Source: Bryobacteraceae bacterium
Lineage (GTDB): Bacteria > Acidobacteriota > Terriglobia > Bryobacterales > Bryobacteraceae
Length of the DNA stretch: 64,000 nucleotides
Assembly (NCBI GenBank): GCA_050015835.1
Contig: JBEKAQ010000005.1
Coordinates: 12,013 to 76,012 of the forward strand
Direction of reading: 5' to 3'
Below are positions 1,246 to 42,098 of the stretch, piece by piece (position 1 is the first letter of the stretch; each line of letters begins with the position of its first letter). The notes beneath the pieces are model-generated. The model had not been told where the DNA came from. It searched no databases and worked only from the letters and a program-made list of their open reading frames with translations. The translations under genes and the position numbers were made by a program.

Positions 1246-1324
1246 CCACTCCCTCACGGTCGCGGTTCTGTAGTGATCCGTTCCCGTGCGCACCACGCGC
1301 AGAACCGCGACCGTAAGGGAGTGG
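1246..1324. repeat. REP-like palindromic element: 25-nt inverted arms with a 29-nt spacer
   Basis: CCACTCCCTCACGGTCGCGGTTCTG (1246-1270) is the reverse complement of CAGAACCGCGACCGTAAGGGAGTGG (1300-1324) with one mismatch. It lies between the miaB stop and the next gene, and related half copies occur near 23777 and 59685. Confidence 0.75.
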
Positions 1325-1373
1325 AAGCTGCGGCGATTTGCGCTTGTGCTGTAATAAATGCATGGAAGTCGAG

Positions 1374-1850
1374 ATGAAGATCCGCGGATTGATGATGGAC
1401 CCTGTAACCAGCATGCCCATCGTCATCCTCAAGGACGTGGGGAGCAACAACGTGCTTCCCATCTGGGTCGGTATTTACGAGGCCAACGCCATCGCGCTCG
1501 AGATCGAAAAAGTCTCGACGCCGCGACCCATGACGCACGATCTGATCAAGACCCTGCTGCATGGACTCGACGCGGGCATCCGCAAGGTGGTCGTCAACGA
1601 ACTGAAGGAAGATACTTTCTTCGCGGTGATCTGGGTCGAGCGCAACGGCGAACTGATCTCGGTCGATTCGCGGCCGAGCGACGCCCTCGCCCTCGCGCTG
1701 CGTCTCGATTGCCCCATTTTTGTCGACGAAGCCGTGCTCCGCTCCGCCAGGAGCGCGAGCGGCGTTTCCGATAAGCTCAACACCAACCAGGAGCTCAGGC
1801 GGTATCTCGAAAACCTCGGCGATGAAGACCTCGGCCGCTACAAGATGTAG
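1374..1850 (+). CDS. bifunctional nuclease (DUF151) family protein
   Basis: Blocks PIVILKD, LPIWVGIYEANAIALEIE and RPMTHDL are typical of DUF151. The start is uncertain (1338, 1362 or 1374). Confidence 0.75.
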   Translation: MKIRGLMMDPVTSMPIVILKDVGSNNVLPIWVGIYEANAIALEIEKVSTPRPMTHDLIKTLLHGLDAGIRKVVVNELKEDTFFAVIWVERNGELISVDSRPSDALALALRLDCPIFVDEAVLRSARSASGVSDKLNTNQELRRYLENLGDEDLGRYKM

Positions 1851-3062
1851 CTATTTCTTCCACGTAATCAGCACCCACGCCGCGTAGAGCGCCACGATAC
1901 CGCCCACCGCGACCGAAACCGAACTGATGCGGAAGAGGACCTTCCTCCGGACTGCGAGGGCAGCTTCCCGCCTGGTCCGCCAATCCCGCACGATCGGCGC
2001 CAGAGACTGATGCGGCAGTTCGTAGCGCTTCGCGCCCGGCATTTCGAAAGTCCTGATCAGGCCCCGCTCCAGCAGGATCGGCAGCAGCGCCGGTATGAAC
2101 CGGTCCAGCTTTCCGGAGTATTCCGTGAGAGCCTTTTCGGTCACCGACAGCGCCTGGCCTTCGGGTGAAACCAGAATATTGCACCAGCGGAGGAACAGCT
2201 CCCGGTGCGGCTTAATCAGTTCGGAGAACTGCGCATCGCACGATTCCACGATCAGGCGTTCGGCACCCCCATGGGCTTCGAGCGTCGACATTCTCGCCAC
2301 GGTCGAGCTCGAGCGGATTTCCGCTTCGAGCAACCGGGTCGTCCCGCGCGCCAGAAAATACGGATGAACCCCTCCGTCGAATGCCGCAGCCGGTGCGGCG
2401 GTAAGAGCCGCGGCAACCTCGGGCTCGACCGTGCAGCCGCGCTCTTCGGCCATGCACGACACCATTTCCTTCGCCGCTTCCGGAGACAACGGAGGCAGCA
2501 CGACCCGGTACCCGAGAAGATTCGGGATCAATTGGGAAAGCCGCTCAAACGATTTGACCGCATGCTGGTGGATGGCAACCACAAAAACGCCATGGTGCCG
2601 GGCGATGGCGTCCGCCAGTTCCGCATCGAAAGCGTCTGAAAGGTCGGTTCCCGAGTGGCCGCGCAGATAGTCTTCGAACCGGTCGAGCAGCAGGGCCACT
2701 CTGTGCCCGGTTTGCCGGCCTGTCCGGTAGAGCGTCTCATCCAGCATTTCGGGCTCCGCGAAGAACTGCTCGTCGGCCTGCGCTCGAACGGCCCGGGCAA
2801 TCGCCTCCTTCAGGTTTGCGACGAAGGCGCGGCCCTGCCAATCGTCGAATACCACGGTGATGAATCCATCCGCCCGCAAGGCCGGGGCGACGCCCTCAGC
2901 CAGCAGTGAAGTCGCGCCCAGCCCAGGCTCCGCCACCACAACGACAAAGCGGTCCTGACGGCAATCCTCCACGATCCGCCGGACTTCGTCTTCGCGCCCA
3001 CACAGCACCACAGATCGAATGTACAATACTTCGCCCTTCTTGTTGGTGGAAGTTATCTTCAA
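1851..3062 (-). CDS. STAND/AAA-like NTPase-domain protein with a degenerate Walker A and a C-terminal membrane anchor
   Basis: GREDEVRRIVE...VVVVAEPGLGATSLL is P-loop-like but has Ala where the Walker Lys should be. Walker-B-like ALLLDRFED is present, and the C-terminus has a hydrophobic helix (VAVGGIVALYAAWVLITW). Confidence 0.55.
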   Translation of the reverse strand: MKITSTNKKGEVLYIRSVVLCGREDEVRRIVEDCRQDRFVVVVAEPGLGATSLLAEGVAPALRADGFITVVFDDWQGRAFVANLKEAIARAVRAQADEQFFAEPEMLDETLYRTGRQTGHRVALLLDRFEDYLRGHSGTDLSDAFDAELADAIARHHGVFVVAIHQHAVKSFERLSQLIPNLLGYRVVLPPLSPEAAKEMVSCMAEERGCTVEPEVAAALTAAPAAAFDGGVHPYFLARGTTRLLEAEIRSSSTVARMSTLEAHGGAERLIVESCDAQFSELIKPHRELFLRWCNILVSPEGQALSVTEKALTEYSGKLDRFIPALLPILLERGLIRTFEMPGAKRYELPHQSLAPIVRDWRTRREAALAVRRKVLFRISSVSVAVGGIVALYAAWVLITWKK

Positions 3063-3082
3063 ACCTGGTGTCTATCCCAGCC

Positions 3083-3809
3083 ATGTTCGATCAGACCTTC
3101 GTCAATACGCACGCGCGTACCCGCAGACCATGGACAGTAGCGGCTTCGTTGGCCATGTAAACAGGATTAGTGGCTGTAATGCTCATCCTGCCCCTGCTGC
3201 ATCCGGAAGCACCGCATCCGAGGTTTGACGCGCCGGTCCGGGTGGCGCTGGAAGCGCTGACCACGCAATCGCCGCCGATGGCCAAACCGGCTCCGCGCGA
3301 CGCTCAGCCGGCTCCGCGCCCCACCTTCACTGCGCCTGTGCGCGTTCCGGCCCACATCGCTATAGCCATGATGGACGGCCCATTGCCGGACCTGCCGATG
3401 GCGGCTCCGGGCTCCGTGGCCGGGGGATCTCCCATCGCGGCGATCGTCCTGGATTTACCGGCGCGCCTTCCTTCTTCCCCGCCATCCGTGCGGCCCGAAC
3501 TGGCGCGGCCAGCGGAACCCGTACACGTCGGCGTCGGCGTTCAATCGGCCAAATTGATCTTCGGTCCGAAACCGCGCTACTCCGCCGTCGCCATCGCTGC
3601 GCATCTTGAGGGCACGGTCAAACTGCAAGCCGTCATCGCGGCCCGATGGAACCATCCGGAACCTGCGGCTGATGACCGGGCCTCCGCTTCTCGCCAGCCT
3701 CGCTCTCGAAGCCGTGAAGCAGTGGCGCTACCGGCCTACGCTGCTGAACGGCGTGCCGGTTGAAGTAATCACGGAAATCGACGTGGTGTTTACGCTGAGT
3801 GGTAATTGA
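3083..3809 (+). pseudogene. tonB: energy transducer TonB, disrupted by an in-frame stop plus a frameshift
   Basis: The TonB-like N-terminus MFDQTFVNTHARTRRPWTVAASLAM runs into TAA at 3158-3160. The same frame then continues through a TM segment and a Pro-rich spacer. A +1 shift near 3641-3645 is needed to join GTVKLQAVIA to DGTIRNLRLMTGPPLL...VKQWRYRPTLLNGVPVEV, the TonB C-terminal domain. Confidence 0.6.
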
Positions 3810-4593
3810 CCAGTTCGATGCCGCGCCGTTCCATCGCACTGCGCGTTTTCGGCGACACCAGCGCGGCCAGCTCAATGGCGCGGCTTTCTTTCAGACGCGT
3901 GCGGGCGGCGCGGAGCTCCGGCCCCAGCCGCCCTGGGTGGCACATGAACTCCGTCAGGCCCCCCGGCAGCTGATCGAGCGTGCGCACCAGAGACTCATCG
4001 TCCAGGGCGCCGGTGATTTGAAATCCCGTGAAATGATCGGTGGTCCGCAACCCCTCGAGAGCCGAGGCGAAACGGGGCCGCAGCAACCCCATTCCCAGCG
4101 CCACCGCGCGTTTCAGGACGCGGGCCTTATCGTCGATGCCGAAATCGAAGGGCCGCCGCACCCACTGGATATCGAACTCGCGCGCCACCTTAGCCACCGC
4201 TTCGAGCACCGGCGGCAGCAGATGCGAATGCTTGTGCGAGTCGATGTGGCTGGGATGAATCCCCGCGCCGATCAGCTTCCGCACCTGCGCTCGAATTTCT
4301 TCGTAAAGGGGGAAATCGCGGCGGAACAGGTTCGCGATCAAATCCTTCACCGTCGCCGGAAGCGCGCGTGTTGGATCGAGCACGCTCTGCCCCTCGACCA
4401 ACACCACGTGGCATCCCACATCGAGCGAAGGTGCCTGGCGCGACCGGGCCACGGCGTCTTCGAACGCTTCGCCGTTCGCCATCAGCGTTGTGGCTGTAAG
4501 AATGCCGGAGCGGTGCGCTTCGACGATCCCCTCGTTCACATCGCGCGTGAACCCGAAATCGTCCGCGTTTACGATCATCCGCCGTCCGGGCAT
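3790..4593 (-). CDS. ChbG/HpnK (YdjC) family carbohydrate deacetylase
   Basis: The N-terminus MIVNADDFGFTRDVNEGIVEAHRSGILTATTLMANG and the HIDSHKHSH block are typical of the YdjC family. Confidence 0.8.
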   Translation of the reverse strand: MPGRRMIVNADDFGFTRDVNEGIVEAHRSGILTATTLMANGEAFEDAVARSRQAPSLDVGCHVVLVEGQSVLDPTRALPATVKDLIANLFRRDFPLYEEIRAQVRKLIGAGIHPSHIDSHKHSHLLPPVLEAVAKVAREFDIQWVRRPFDFGIDDKARVLKRAVALGMGLLRPRFASALEGLRTTDHFTGFQITGALDDESLVRTLDQLPGGLTEFMCHPGRLGPELRAARTRLKESRAIELAALVSPKTRSAMERRGIELVNYHSA

Positions 4594-4597
4594 CGGC

Positions 4598-5671
4598 CTA
4601 AAAAATAGCCAACTTGATGCTCAGAAACTTCTTCGGGTTCTTATGCACGTCCACCAGCAGGCTGTTCAGCTCCCGGGTTACCCCATTCATCGAATCGTAG
4701 AGCTGAGGATTCACCATCAGCTGGCCGATCGTCCCCTGGCCCGAATTGATCTTGTCGATCGCGGTGTTCACCTTCTGAGCCACCAGATCGAGCTGCTTGT
4801 AGACGTCCTCGTCCTTGAGGAACTTTCCCGCCGTCCCCTTGCCCGCGTTCAGATCGTCGAGCAGTTTTTTCGCTTCCGTCAGGCTCAAGTGCGCTTCGTC
4901 GTAAAGCTGCGGATCGTAGAGCAGTTTCCCGGCCGAGCCGCGGCCCTGCTGCACCTGCGCCAGCATATCGTCCAGACGCTGGATGGGACGCCGGATCTCG
5001 TTGTAAAGACTGTCGTCGTAAAGCAGATGGTTAATGGTGCCGTTGCTGTTCCTTACGTCTTTGACAATCTGCTCCACTTCGCCCGCCGTGGCATTCAGCC
5101 GGTCGTACAGCGAATCGTCCTTCAGCAGCTTTCCGAGATTCCCCTGACCCGAATCCACCACGGCCAGAATTCCGTCCACGCGTCCCAGGATGGTCTTGAA
5201 CTGATTCAGCAGTCCGGACGCCTGGGCCATGATTTCGGGAATATCCTGCGTCGTGAACGAAGCGACTTCGCCATTGGCCTGCACGTGCTTCGGATGCGTC
5301 CCCCTGGTGATATTGATGTACTTGTCGCCCAGCAGATTGGCGGCCTTCAGGGTTGCGGTCGAGTCGTCCGGGATCAGGTCCAGATATCTGCGGCTGATCT
5401 TCATCTGAATTTCCACCGTACGCTTCGGATCGTGCGATCCCGAGAGTTGCACCTTAAATATGTGGCCGACATAAATGCCGTTCAGCCGGACCTCCGCGTT
5501 CTCCGCGATGCCCGCCGAATCTTCCATGTAGGTGCGCAGAACCGCCTCGGGCTGGAATATATTGCTTTTTCCGCTCAGCAGAAAGATGAGCACGGCGGCG
5601 ATGATCATGGCGATCGTCGCCAACACACCGACCCGCAACTCCGCCCAATGTACCCGCTTCTGCGATGCCAT
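4598..5671 (-). CDS. mlaD: MlaD/MCE-family lipid-transport substrate-binding protein
   Basis: N-terminal TM helix followed by an MCE domain (VRLNGIYVGHI). Lies directly downstream of mlaE and mlaF on the same strand. Confidence 0.8.
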   Translation of the reverse strand: MASQKRVHWAELRVGVLATIAMIIAAVLIFLLSGKSNIFQPEAVLRTYMEDSAGIAENAEVRLNGIYVGHIFKVQLSGSHDPKRTVEIQMKISRRYLDLIPDDSTATLKAANLLGDKYINITRGTHPKHVQANGEVASFTTQDIPEIMAQASGLLNQFKTILGRVDGILAVVDSGQGNLGKLLKDDSLYDRLNATAGEVEQIVKDVRNSNGTINHLLYDDSLYNEIRRPIQRLDDMLAQVQQGRGSAGKLLYDPQLYDEAHLSLTEAKKLLDDLNAGKGTAGKFLKDEDVYKQLDLVAQKVNTAIDKINSGQGTIGQLMVNPQLYDSMNGVTRELNSLLVDVHKNPKKFLSIKLAIF

Positions 5672-39411: not shown

Positions 39412-39572
39412 GCCCTTTATGATGGCAGGTTAACGCCCCCGGCCGGAAGTAGACTTTGGGTAATCTTCCGACGCGATGACCCGGGCAGTCGCGCCCGATA
39501 GTTGAAACCGCCGCCAAACCCGCCGCTAACATGAGCGCCGCAAGACATTCTCCGTCCATGACCCCTTCTTAG

Positions 39573-39597
39573 GGCAATTATATAGTTGGCTAAAGTT
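39573..39597. repeat. IS left terminal inverted repeat
   Basis: GGCAATTATATAGTTGGCTAAAGTT. Confidence 0.85.
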
Positions 39598-39862
39598 ACG
39601 CGGCTCTATGGGGTGGAACTTGGCGTAGCGCGATGTCGCCACACGACGTGCAGCGTGCGACATGGCTTTGTGGTGCGAAGTTCCCATGCTCGCCTTCGCA
39701 AAATCCGCGATGGCATGTTGCACAGTAGCGCAATGTGAGGCGTATGCGCCGAAACGCATTCTGACATATTCGGCACGGCACCCAGATTCCTCCAGATATC
39801 TTCTGGCGGTCGTTTTGGCTTGGATCGAACTCACTCAGATCGGTTGGCACAGCAGGGGACAT
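39596..39862 (-). CDS. Cys-rich small protein (putative zinc ribbon), IS passenger
   Basis: Three CxxC pairs (CRIC, CATC, CTSC). A GGAAAGG Shine-Dalgarno lies 6 nt before the ATG. The gene starts 14 nt after the upstream stop, and its stop codon lies inside the left inverted repeat. Confidence 0.45.
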   Translation of the reverse strand: MSPAVPTDLSEFDPSQNDRQKISGGIWVPCRICQNAFRRIRLTLRYCATCHRGFCEGEHGNFAPQSHVARCTSCGDIALRQVPPHRAA

Positions 39863-39876
39863 AGTAGCCTTTCCGT

Positions 39877-40068
39877 TCAGGCGGGTTTCTTCGCCCGCCT
39901 CCGCGCCCGCGACCGCTTCTCCTGCGCTTCCGCCTTCAGCACGGCTTCCTTCGAGACCGTCAGCGATGCGCGGACGCCACGGTCGAACCTGTCGAACTGA
40001 TCGGGCCGTTCGCAGCGCAGCGCGAGAGCGGCGATGGTTTCGGCTTGCGTCGGTGTTGGTTTCGTCAC
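39877..40068 (-). CDS. small basic-tailed hypothetical protein, IS passenger
   Basis: 63 aa with a GTG start 7 nt after the upstream stop. The C-terminus is a lysine/arginine-rich tail (KRSRARRRAKKPA). Confidence 0.45.
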   Translation of the reverse strand: MTKPTPTQAETIAALALRCERPDQFDRFDRGVRASLTVSKEAVLKAEAQEKRSRARRRAKKPA

Positions 40069-40075
40069 TGTTACC

Positions 40076-40381
40076 TCAAAACGGGGCGCAATCGTCGCCC
40101 GCTACTTCCCCGCCAAGCAGTCGAACTTCTTTGTCCGAACAGGTGAAGAAAACTCGTAGTGCCGGTAGATCTGAAGTATTCACGGTTTTAGCCATAGAAA
40201 GATGCGTTCCAGGGAGCATCTCGAATTCCTCTGGAGAACGCGCCAACGCAAAAATCAAAGCTTCCATAACCTCATCGATACGCTTATAGGACACCTTCAG
40301 CGACTTCAGGAGATCTGTGAATTCCGGCTCCTCGCGAACCGTCCGTAGGTTAAGCGATGACAAGGTTATGGCTTTTCGCAA
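40076..40381 (-). CDS. hypothetical 101-aa protein, candidate toxin partner of the Panacea-domain gene
   Basis: TTG start overlapping the last 32 nt of the upstream DUF4065 gene. The C-terminal LPALRVFFTCSDKEVRLLGGEV resembles RelE/ParE-type terminal strands, but this is only an inference. Confidence 0.5.
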   Translation of the reverse strand: MRKAITLSSLNLRTVREEPEFTDLLKSLKVSYKRIDEVMEALIFALARSPEEFEMLPGTHLSMAKTVNTSDLPALRVFFTCSDKEVRLLGGEVAGDDCAPF

Positions 40382-40916
40382 ACCGAAGGCCTCTCTGTTT
40401 GTCTTCTGCCGTCAGCGGTTGGCTGGACAAAAATACCGTCGCATAAGGTATTGTTTCGTTGTCGCGCGCCACTATCCAGCCCATCATTCGATGGCTCAAC
40501 TCGCTGGCTGTTTCCGCATTGGCCATCGCGAGCCCTTCGATCACCTGATCTACTTGGGCGATTTCCTCCGCCGAGAAAACGGAAAGGTCTGGTCGTCTAA
40601 GATTGACCGTCCGATGCTGGATGTTTCCGTTCCGGAGGGATTTGGCCTGTATGCCCAAGATGCCCTCCTTGAGCATCTTGGCCCTAATCGGCAAGAGTTT
40701 TCTTGGGCACGGACCATTCGGAAGCTTCTGGTATTCAAAACCAGTGATTGGACTCCCAGTATTCCCATAGTGGTAGAAATCTGAGAAGTACAGTATTTTG
40801 TTTAACTTAGTAGCGCCAAATGTGGGATCATCGGCGCATTTCTGGCTGATGTAGAGGATTAGTTCTCGGAACTTTCGCTCATCCTCTGCGTGTTGATGTC
40901 GTGTCGTCGTTGGCAT
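40350..40916 (-). CDS. Panacea (DUF4065, SocA-like) domain protein, antitoxin-type
   Basis: TKLNKILYFSDFYHYGNTGSPITGFEYQKLPNGPCP matches the DUF4065 core pattern (KLxKLLYf...G.P.t...y....GP). A Shine-Dalgarno GAGAGGA lies upstream. Confidence 0.75.
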   Translation of the reverse strand: MPTTTRHQHAEDERKFRELILYISQKCADDPTFGATKLNKILYFSDFYHYGNTGSPITGFEYQKLPNGPCPRKLLPIRAKMLKEGILGIQAKSLRNGNIQHRTVNLRRPDLSVFSAEEIAQVDQVIEGLAMANAETASELSHRMMGWIVARDNETIPYATVFLSSQPLTAEDKQRGLRFAKSHNLVIA

Positions 40917-41076
40917 TTTTGGTGTCCTCTCTTTCCATTATGGCGAAGAAAAGGAGAAGATCGCTACAACAGGAGAACGCAATTGCTTATTATGTTACAT
41001 CTATCCGCAGTGGAAAAGTGTGGGACCAGAAAGGATTTTAACGTTTCCCACGTAAAGGTTTACGATACGGAAGCTT

Positions 41077-42042
41077 TCACGGCTGCGCTTCCATCGTCTT
41101 GCCGGTAAGTTGATCGTACATGATCCGCTTGCCGACGATCCCGCGCACGGCGATGTCAAAGCGCTCTGCGTCCGTCATGTGGCGATTATTGAACCGGTAC
41201 GTTTGCTCATCCAGGTATCGGAACAAGTGGAACGGCTCGACCGAAACGTATGTCCCGTGAAGGCTGCGCTTCAGCAGCGACCAGAAGTTTTCGCAGCCAT
41301 TCGTGTGGCAGGTGTCTTTCACGTACTCTACTGCGTGGTCCACAACCTGATGCTTGAATTCGTCCAAACCCTCATACGACTTCAGAGAGTCCGTATAGAT
41401 CGCCGATCCGGCCTGAACATGCTCACGGACTTCAGCCTGAAGCGCTTTTTTCCGGCGGTTCGCAACCACCTTCGTGCGTATCTGGCTGGGCCTTCCATCC
41501 TTCCCACGTTCCAGAATCCCCATGACCATAGTTTTATCCTTGCCGCCAGTACCCGTGATCTTCCGCGCCCTCACGTCCTTGTGCATATTCCGGGCCTTCT
41601 GCCCGATGAACGTCTCGTCTGCCTCGACTTCGCCGGTCAGTTTATCAGGTGTCGCGAGACCGAACGATAACCGAATCCGATGGTCCAGAAACCACGCCGT
41701 CTTCTGTGTAATGTTCAGCGCCCGCGCGATTTCGCATGAACTGATGCCGTTCTTGCAGTTGGTAATCAGCCAGGTTGCCGTGAGCCACTTGTCCAGGCCG
41801 AGCGGACTTTCCTCGTAGATCGTTCCAGTCTTCAGGGAGAACTGCTGTTTCGGGTGCTGGTTCGGGCACCACCAGCGGTTCTGATTCGCCAGGAACTTCA
41901 CTTCCTTGCAGCCGCAAGTGGGGCAGGTTACGCCATCCGGCCAGCGCCGCCGCACCAAGTAGTCACGGCAGTTGTCAGGATTGGCGAAGTAAACGATGGC
42001 TTCCTGAAGGCTGATCGGCTCTGGACTTGTTGCTCTTTCCAT
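41077..42042 (-). CDS. IS1595-family transposase
   Basis: N-terminal transposase zinc ribbon (RRRWPDGVTCPTCGC...WWCPN). The DDE_Tnp_IS1595 region contains DETFIGQKARNMH, IYTDSLKSYEGL, HTNGCENFWSLLKRSLHGTY and RFNNR. Confidence 0.92.
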   Translation of the reverse strand: MERATSPEPISLQEAIVYFANPDNCRDYLVRRRWPDGVTCPTCGCKEVKFLANQNRWWCPNQHPKQQFSLKTGTIYEESPLGLDKWLTATWLITNCKNGISSCEIARALNITQKTAWFLDHRIRLSFGLATPDKLTGEVEADETFIGQKARNMHKDVRARKITGTGGKDKTMVMGILERGKDGRPSQIRTKVVANRRKKALQAEVREHVQAGSAIYTDSLKSYEGLDEFKHQVVDHAVEYVKDTCHTNGCENFWSLLKRSLHGTYVSVEPFHLFRYLDEQTYRFNNRHMTDAERFDIAVRGIVGKRIMYDQLTGKTMEAQP

Positions 42043-42065
42043 GCTTTAATTATAGGGCTTGGAGC

Positions 42066-42090
42066 AACTTTAGTCAACTATATAATTGCC
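42066..42090. repeat. IS right terminal inverted repeat
   Basis: AACTTTAGTCAACTATATAATTGCC, the reverse complement of the left repeat apart from one G/A difference. Confidence 0.85.
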
Positions 42091-42098
42091 CTTCTTAG

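Follow-up and report, generated by a model that had tools for sequence, protein, structure and literature searches.

We analysed a window of 64,000 nucleotides from a Bryobacteraceae bacterium (contig JBEKAQ010000005.1, positions 12,013 to 76,012), in which an insertion sequence (IS) of the IS1595 family occupies 2,518 bp on the minus strand (39573-42090). In addition to its transposase, this element carries a small passenger cassette, the order on the minus strand being transposase, panA, a 101-aa gene and a 63-aa gene, followed by a tail of ~280 bp. The panA gene (40350-40916, minus strand) codes for a stand-alone Panacea (DUF4065/SocA-like) protein of 188 aa, the putative antitoxin. The 101-aa gene (40076-40381, minus strand) encodes an acidic protein with a predicted RelE/ParE fold, here referred to as the small protein, the putative toxin (PanT) of the pair. 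The two genes share 32 nt (40350-40381), which they read in different frames. The third gene (39877-40068, minus strand) starts 8 nt after the stop codon of the 101-aa gene, and its conserved 63-aa product is very basic, with an isoelectric point (pI) of 10.9.

The limits of the element are given by two terminal inverted repeats of 27 nt, one at the transposase end (42066-42092, element end at 42090) and the other at the cargo end (39571-39597, element end at 39573); read across the junctions, the two ends are GGCAATTATATAG...CTATATAATTGCC. The repeats are 96% complementary over their 27 nt, and their 18-nt core has just two occurrences in the window, a number of matches reached in 0 of 100 shuffles. 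A target-site duplication of 8 bp, CTTCTTAG, was read from the sequence on both flanks (39565-39572 and 42091-42098), which is the size typical of the IS1595 family (ISfinder). With inverted repeats and a target duplication on both sides, the element is therefore a complete and intact IS. Its transposase gene (41077-42042, minus strand) codes for a DDE enzyme of 321 aa with an N-terminal zinc ribbon, recognised by PF12762 (E 2.3e-40), PF12760 (E 7.2e-07) and NF033547 (E 2.7e-52). The G+C content is ~0.60-0.67 in the flanks versus 0.46-0.54 within the element, which looks recently inserted.

The panA gene and its overlapping partner

The panA product, which contains TKLNKILYFSDFYHYGNTGSPITGFEYQKLPNGPCP, matches PF13274 (SocA_Panacea) at E 1.8e-15, its 58.3 bits well exceeding the Pfam gathering score of 25.7 and the match covering positions 1-112 of the 113 in the model, and has no extra N-terminal domain; 498 homologues of it were found. 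In an AlphaFold2 model (pLDDT 85.5, the predicted local confidence score) the core is folded at residues 13-150, and the C-terminal stretch, conserved and of lower model confidence, forms a single helix at 170-182. We infer from the model that a folded core followed by a flexible conserved tail is what would be seen in an antitoxin whose tail becomes ordered on the toxin. In the PDB, a probability of 1.00 was reached only by chains of the Mycobacterium tuberculosis DarTG complex (7yk3), with a template modelling (TM) score of only 0.44; Kurata et al. (2022; PMC8832971) discuss DarG, the antitoxin of DarTG, among the Panacea proteins. The protein is a stand-alone Panacea as defined by Ernits et al. 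(2023; PMC10440598), who describe this type as neutralising toxins directly.

The 101-aa open reading frame (ORF) has a TTG start and its product ends in ...LPALRVFFTCSDKEVRLLGGEVAGDDCAPF. The NCBI annotation of the same metagenome-assembled genome gives a 95-aa product, starting at a TTG 18 nt downstream of the start used here. The 101-aa start fits better, because GAGAGG lies 8 nt upstream of it and the homologues P0124 and P0271 have N-termini of equal length; with either start the gene overlaps panA. A word-indexed homology search with the ORF returned its self match alone. When 1.84 billion cluster representatives were scanned exhaustively with HMMER, 169 clusters (50% identity) were recovered at E <= 1e-3, nearly all of 85-110 aa. 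This family, of ~95 aa, carries the name 'hypothetical protein' in every source. Its 63-member alignment has the consensus R-x-I-x-E-E-x-x-F ... R-L-D-E ... L-A-R-x-P-E-x-F-P-x-x-P-G-T ... K-T ... P-x-L-R-x-x-F-T-x-D-D-x-x-V-x-L-x-x-x-E. No Pfam or NCBIfam model matched the 101-aa protein, and the family profile retrieved nothing relevant among PDB sequences. Judged by its sequence conservation, the 101-aa ORF is a genuine gene.

Several long proteins (1,350-3,209 aa; P0122, P0123, P0126, P0129 and others) stood high in the HMMER list and were discarded as spurious TPR-repeat matches. These reach E 3e-32, their repeat RLVDQEPERADYLRDLSVSYNKMGDL resembling query residues 12-42 and being matched many times. 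Some have TIR/CHAT/NB-ARC-like N-termini, and the similarity corresponds to a chance resemblance amplified by the repeats, not to whole-protein homology.

A survey based on PanA, taking one genome per species, gave 80 loci of this PanA subfamily, and in 68 of them the gene that immediately follows PanA, on the same strand, encodes a homologue of the small protein. The hosts of the pair belong to Acidobacteriota, Chloroflexota (many of them Dehalococcoidia), Gemmatimonadota, Planctomycetota and Nitrospirota, and also to Actinomycetota, Patescibacteria and Omnitrophota, together with one Micrarchaeia archaeon. The closest PanA homologues (64-69% identity), at loci L003 and L005, are followed by overlapping ORFs whose products share 48% and 35% identity, respectively, with the 101-aa protein. 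Two of the 12 remaining PanA loci (L066 and L086) have other small ORFs with RelE/ParE-like C-termini. The association was also recovered in the opposite direction: starting from the small gene, a Panacea gene lies immediately upstream in all four divergent members found on long contigs (4/4), and with the small protein's own motifs as the start, in a metagenome locus search that used a 4-sequence alignment, PanA lies upstream in 18 of 19 assessable loci. The lone homologue without PanA upstream (L122:610-882) has an aberrant N-terminus, which suggests that this copy is a remnant of a deletion or rearrangement. Among IMG/VR viral contigs, 13 have PanA relatives, and the partner is also present on nine of these; in the plasmid collection no homologue of the small protein was found, and the PanA relatives there belong to MqsR-type systems.

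For the recognition of PanAT loci, Kurata et al. (2022) required a partner within 100 nt of PanA (<=100 nt), on the same strand, in at least two species and in an operon of up to three genes. Here the two genes overlap by 32 nt on the same strand, the arrangement recurs in 68 of the 80 species genomes, and at most one further conserved gene accompanies it. The initial annotation of this DNA had assigned the 188-aa product to DUF4065/Panacea, had placed the start of the 101-aa ORF 32 nt inside that gene and had taken the two to be translationally coupled and carried on a transposable element. The profile score upholds the assignment; the coordinates, strand and peptide strings of the ORF proved correct; the overlap was confirmed and the pair is conserved in both search directions; and the repeats with their target-site duplication delimit the carrier. 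The conservation of the 101-aa ORF beside DUF4065 homologues, on which that annotation had made its proposal depend, was found in both the forward (68/80) and the reverse (4/4 and 18/19) comparisons.

The third gene is also conserved. Its product is 61% identical to that of L005:4832-5011, which has the same relative position, and an iterative search found the gene at 12 distinct loci, directly after the RelE/ParE-fold gene in all except L022; nine of these 12 loci have an IS1595 transposase. Present in ~15% of loci, the gene codes for lysine/arginine-rich proteins of 52-80 aa that share the motif F-x-x-F-D-x-x-x-R-x-x-L-x-V-x-K-x-x-L, followed by a Lys/Arg tail. Searches with the 63-aa protein gave no Pfam, NCBIfam or PADLOC family, and it has no recognisable DNA-binding domain; binding of nucleic acid and regulation of the cassette are possible roles. 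Neither this third conserved gene nor the acidic, tail-less character of the small protein had been mentioned in the initial annotation.

Predicted fold of the small protein and its relation to known systems

An AlphaFold2 model of the small protein, built from an alignment of 35 family members, has a mean pLDDT of 85 and a predicted TM score (pTM) of 0.71. Its topology is beta-alpha-alpha-beta-beta-beta, with DSSP elements E14-17, H19-29, H35-48, E62-65, E75-81 and E85-93. When the model was compared with the PDB using Foldseek, ranks 1-28 were all RelE/ParE-superfamily toxins, at probabilities of 0.82-1.00. The best match was ParE2 of E. coli O157 (5cw7; E 1.3e-3, TM 0.61), and others of the top 28 include archaeal RelE (1wmi), ParE2 and RelE of M. 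tuberculosis, YafQ, HigB2, YoeB and the RelE domain of Cami1; PrpT was found at rank 33. Because the topology is confidently modelled and the top 28 PDB matches all belong to that superfamily, the predicted fold is RelE/ParE, and not a new one. The loose resemblance of the C-terminus to RelE/ParE terminal strands that the initial annotation had remarked upon agrees with both the model fold and the Foldseek matches.

The family is acidic, with a median pI of ~5 and 83% of the representatives below 6. In RelE, YoeB and YafQ, the catalytic Arg, Tyr and His residues come from the segment after the last strand. The features of RelE-type mRNA interferases, namely C-terminal basic or aromatic catalytic residues and a basic surface for the ribosomal A site, are missing from the family. 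The family profile was aligned by hhalign to ParE2 and RelE, whose sequences were confirmed as exact against the PDB: the alignment to ParE2 is weak (E 0.0056) and brings helix 2, the P-x-x-P-G loop and the two final strands into register, and that to RelE is also weak (E 0.34). ParE-type gyrase poisons need their C-terminal region for toxicity, and the C-terminal HARRQFP of ParE2 has no counterpart in the family. The acidity of the small protein, its lack of the C-terminal catalytic residues of RelE, YoeB and YafQ, and ParE2 as its best match both in predicted fold and in hhalign make us lean towards a ParE-like protein that would act on a protein target and away from a ribosome-dependent RNase.

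The PanA-PanT systems were defined by Kurata et al. (2022; PNAS; PMC8832971), who described 88 toxin clusters and validated ten pairs (nine new and one earlier), none of them RelE/ParE-like. Six clusters encoded downstream of PanA in that survey, T14, T28, T58, T59, T60 and T76, are predicted to be RelE/ParE-like, by ParE domain or by HHpred (Dataset S1). Like these, the present cassette has a stand-alone Panacea gene first and a small RelE/ParE-like gene immediately downstream, often overlapping, with transposases, including those of IS1595, often adjacent. The family described here differs from them, in a comparison by description only, in having no RelE/ParE sequence-profile match, in being acidic and in lacking a C-terminal catalytic tail; furthermore, its hosts are mainly uncultured members of Acidobacteriota and Chloroflexota, groups little represented in that survey, which drew on RefSeq. 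The cassette is thus a sequence-divergent PanA and RelE/ParE-fold pair of a published kind: its toxin class is not new, and its association with transposons had been glimpsed earlier.

Other systems share part of these traits. PaaA2-ParE2 and ParD-ParE provide the best structural match (5cw7, TM 0.61) and the weak in-register alignment, their toxins being likewise of ~95 aa and ParE2 also not basic; however, the antitoxin here is a Panacea protein instead of ParD or PaaA2, and the His-x-Arg-Arg region at the ParE C-terminus is absent. The three-gene toxin-antitoxin (TA) modules, such as paaR-paaA-parE, also have a third small conserved gene with the pair, whereas the third gene described here lies downstream, is basic, has no recognisable DNA-binding domain and is present in ~15% of loci. 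Transposons of the Tn3 family are also documented carriers of TA cassettes (Lima-Mendez et al., 2020; mBio; PMC7157771). As in those passengers, a putative type II TA cassette lies inside a transposable element beside the transposition genes, but here PanA is the putative antitoxin, and the cassette travels on a small element of the IS1595 family (2.2-3.8 kb) that duplicates 8 bp of its target.

The largest PanT cluster, T1, includes proteins of Acidobacterium, Occallatibacter and Nitrolancea (PMC8832971). The family resembles T1 and NetFlax node D3 (AarT-like) in that T1 is the commonest partner of PanA, is encoded downstream of it, bears a hypothetical annotation and has members in Acidobacterium capsulatum and Nitrolancea. 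Membership in T1 is not supported by a comparison with one T1 member, orf161 of Salmonella phage Emek, against which the family profile gave an hhalign probability of 0.1%. In that phage (vB_SemP_Emek, L092:14764-15637), PanA is encoded by orf149 and overlaps the 161-aa orf161, assigned to T1 by Kurata et al. The C-terminus of the orf161 product reads ...VIWLDREFNLYKH (...FNLYKH), and it resembles a small toxin of another, RNase type and is unrelated to the small-protein family.

Function of the cassette

We consider it reasonably probable that the IS1595 passenger cassette functions as a PanA-type type II TA module. In such a module the small RelE/ParE-fold protein would inhibit growth when free, and PanA would bind and neutralise it, either via its Panacea domain or via the conserved flexible C-terminal helix, the latter option being analogous to the antitoxin tails that wrap RelE/ParE toxins. 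The overlapping frames would keep PanA and the small protein in step. The toxin would act on a protein target, as ParE poisons gyrase, rather than as a ribosome-dependent mRNA cutter, and carriage of the cassette would make loss of the IS costly (addiction), provide the host with an abortive-infection-type defence, or both.

Several points weigh against this reading. The charges in this copy are opposite to the usual ones, with a pI of 9.1 for PanA and 5.2 for the small protein; the tail beyond the last strand is short (median 8 residues) and contains 35% Asp/Glu, 5% Lys/Arg and 0% His; and the sequence hallmarks of active RelE/ParE toxins are absent from the small protein. The hhalign probability against ParE2 is only 6.5%, a single family member out of 63 touches ParE_toxin, at E 0.02, and there are no significant Pfam matches. 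The PADLOC defence models gave no match for the cassette. Kurata et al. (2022; PMC8832971) found that eight of the PanTs they tested lacked toxicity in E. coli, and their validated pairs included none with a RelE/ParE-like PanT. Finally, 67 of the 80 pairs (84%) have no transposase nearby, which makes the module independent of the IS; most copies of the pair stand alone; it therefore has its own function, and the IS is one vehicle among others.

An alternative of low probability, although the best placed after the TA module, is that the small protein is not a toxin and forms, with PanA and the 63-aa protein, a non-toxic regulatory or sensor module, for instance one controlling IS1595 transposition or immunity, or a trigger-dependent defence whose effector is encoded elsewhere. 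The loss of the usual catalytic and basic features speaks for it, as do the repeated association with IS1595 transposases in two gene arrangements and the third gene, which follows the IS-borne copies (9/12 loci). Further, a sensor role for Panacea was proposed by Ernits et al. (2023; PMC10440598), and some PanTs are non-toxic in E. coli (PMC8832971). However, the 67 pairs without a nearby transposase indicate that the pair has a function apart from the IS, the overlapping, antitoxin-first layout of two genes together with the fold is that of a classical type II TA system, and some ParE toxins are acidic, among them ParE2, the best match. A related proposal, which we hold to be doubtful, is that the acidic, tail-less RelE/ParE-fold protein, PanA and the basic third protein constitute an accessory module repeatedly recruited by IS1595-family transposons and not a conventional toxin system; such a module might couple maintenance or transposition of the element to a cellular signal, or might be a portable trigger-dependent defence unit. 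If this were true, the RelE/ParE fold would have been repurposed for protein binding.

It is rather unlikely that the cassette is the same TA module with a small protein that acts as a RelE-like, ribosome-dependent mRNA interferase. RelE, YafQ, HigB2 and YoeB are among the top fold matches, and Lys65 (62% K, 14% R) and Arg76 (67%), located on strands 2 and 3, correspond in place to K52/K54 and R61 of RelE. In addition, the NetFlax toxin AarT, described as having 'no HHpred hits but mRNA-interferase fold', inhibits translation (PMC10440598). Against these similarities stand the acidity of the family (median pI ~5, 83% below 6), the short acidic tail (5% Lys/Arg, no His) that stands in place of the catalytic C-terminal segment, and the hhalign result against RelE (E 0.34).

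The initial annotation had taken the 101-aa ORF to be of an unrecognised family and possibly a toxin of a new PanT class. The lack of Pfam, NCBIfam and PDB sequence-profile matches, the exclusively 'hypothetical' database members and the lack of relation to the one member examined of T1, the largest published PanT cluster, agree with that view, which is nonetheless very unlikely: the model has a confident RelE/ParE topology, its top 28 PDB matches are all toxins of that superfamily, and RelE/ParE-like PanT clusters have already been published. Lastly, a chance overlapping frame, for which the TTG start, the short length and the single word-indexed match could be invoked, is hardly credible in view of the 169 homologous clusters, the position and strand kept in 68 of 80 genomes of many phyla at 30-55% identity, and the confident globular fold in the model.

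These results provide a predicted fold and a conserved partner for a widespread 'hypothetical' family of at least 169 clusters (50% identity), mostly from uncultured soil and groundwater bacteria, and add a sequence-divergent, acidic branch to the RelE/ParE toxins paired with the promiscuous Panacea antitoxin. If the protein is toxic, the elements would be compact self-stabilising or defence-carrying insertion sequences, and the pair would be a good system for studying how a stand-alone Panacea domain neutralises a RelE/ParE fold.

Carriage on IS1595 elements and further features of the locus

Carriage of the cassette on IS1595 elements is recurrent. Of the 80 genome loci, 13 have an IS1595-type transposase at a distance of <=2.5 kb from PanA, and such a transposase is also present in three of the four loci chosen via the small protein. 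At L005, L020 and L029, inverted repeats of the element's own enclose both transposase and cassette. The L005 element (1291-5088, 3.8 kb), whose repeat is nearly identical to the one described here (GGGCAATTATATAGTTGACTAAG), carries the transposase, a 509-aa N6/N4 DNA methyltransferase, PanA, the partner and the third gene; that of L020 (2.2 kb) carries the transposase, PanA, the partner and the third gene; and in that of L029 the transposase is convergent to PanA and the partner. The L005 element adjoins a P22-type portal gene, which places this IS1595 element, with its larger cargo, in a prophage-like setting. Many PanATs were reported to adjoin transposases, and IS1595 transposases beside PanA were listed as a 'false positive cluster' (Dataset S1; PMC8832971). 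By their repeats and target duplications, small IS1595 elements are shown to carry as cargo the cassette whose association had been discarded in that earlier survey.

Within the element, a promoter-like site, TTGACT-17-TATAAT (42049-42077, minus strand), agrees with the sigma-70-type consensus at 11 of 12 positions, a consensus match alone; it sits in the terminal repeat, upstream of the transposase, and is directed into that gene. At the opposite end, related elements terminate 28-46 bp beyond the 63-aa gene, and the tail of ~280 bp found here (39598-39876) is not conserved: apart from identical copies of its own contig, no locus has a homologue of it. An 88-aa Cys-rich ORF in this tail (39596-39862, minus strand), with three CxxC pairs and extending into the terminal repeat, was dropped as unsupported, together with a 102-aa ORF, neither having a homologue or a family. 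The tail is probably non-coding filler or a recent acquisition.

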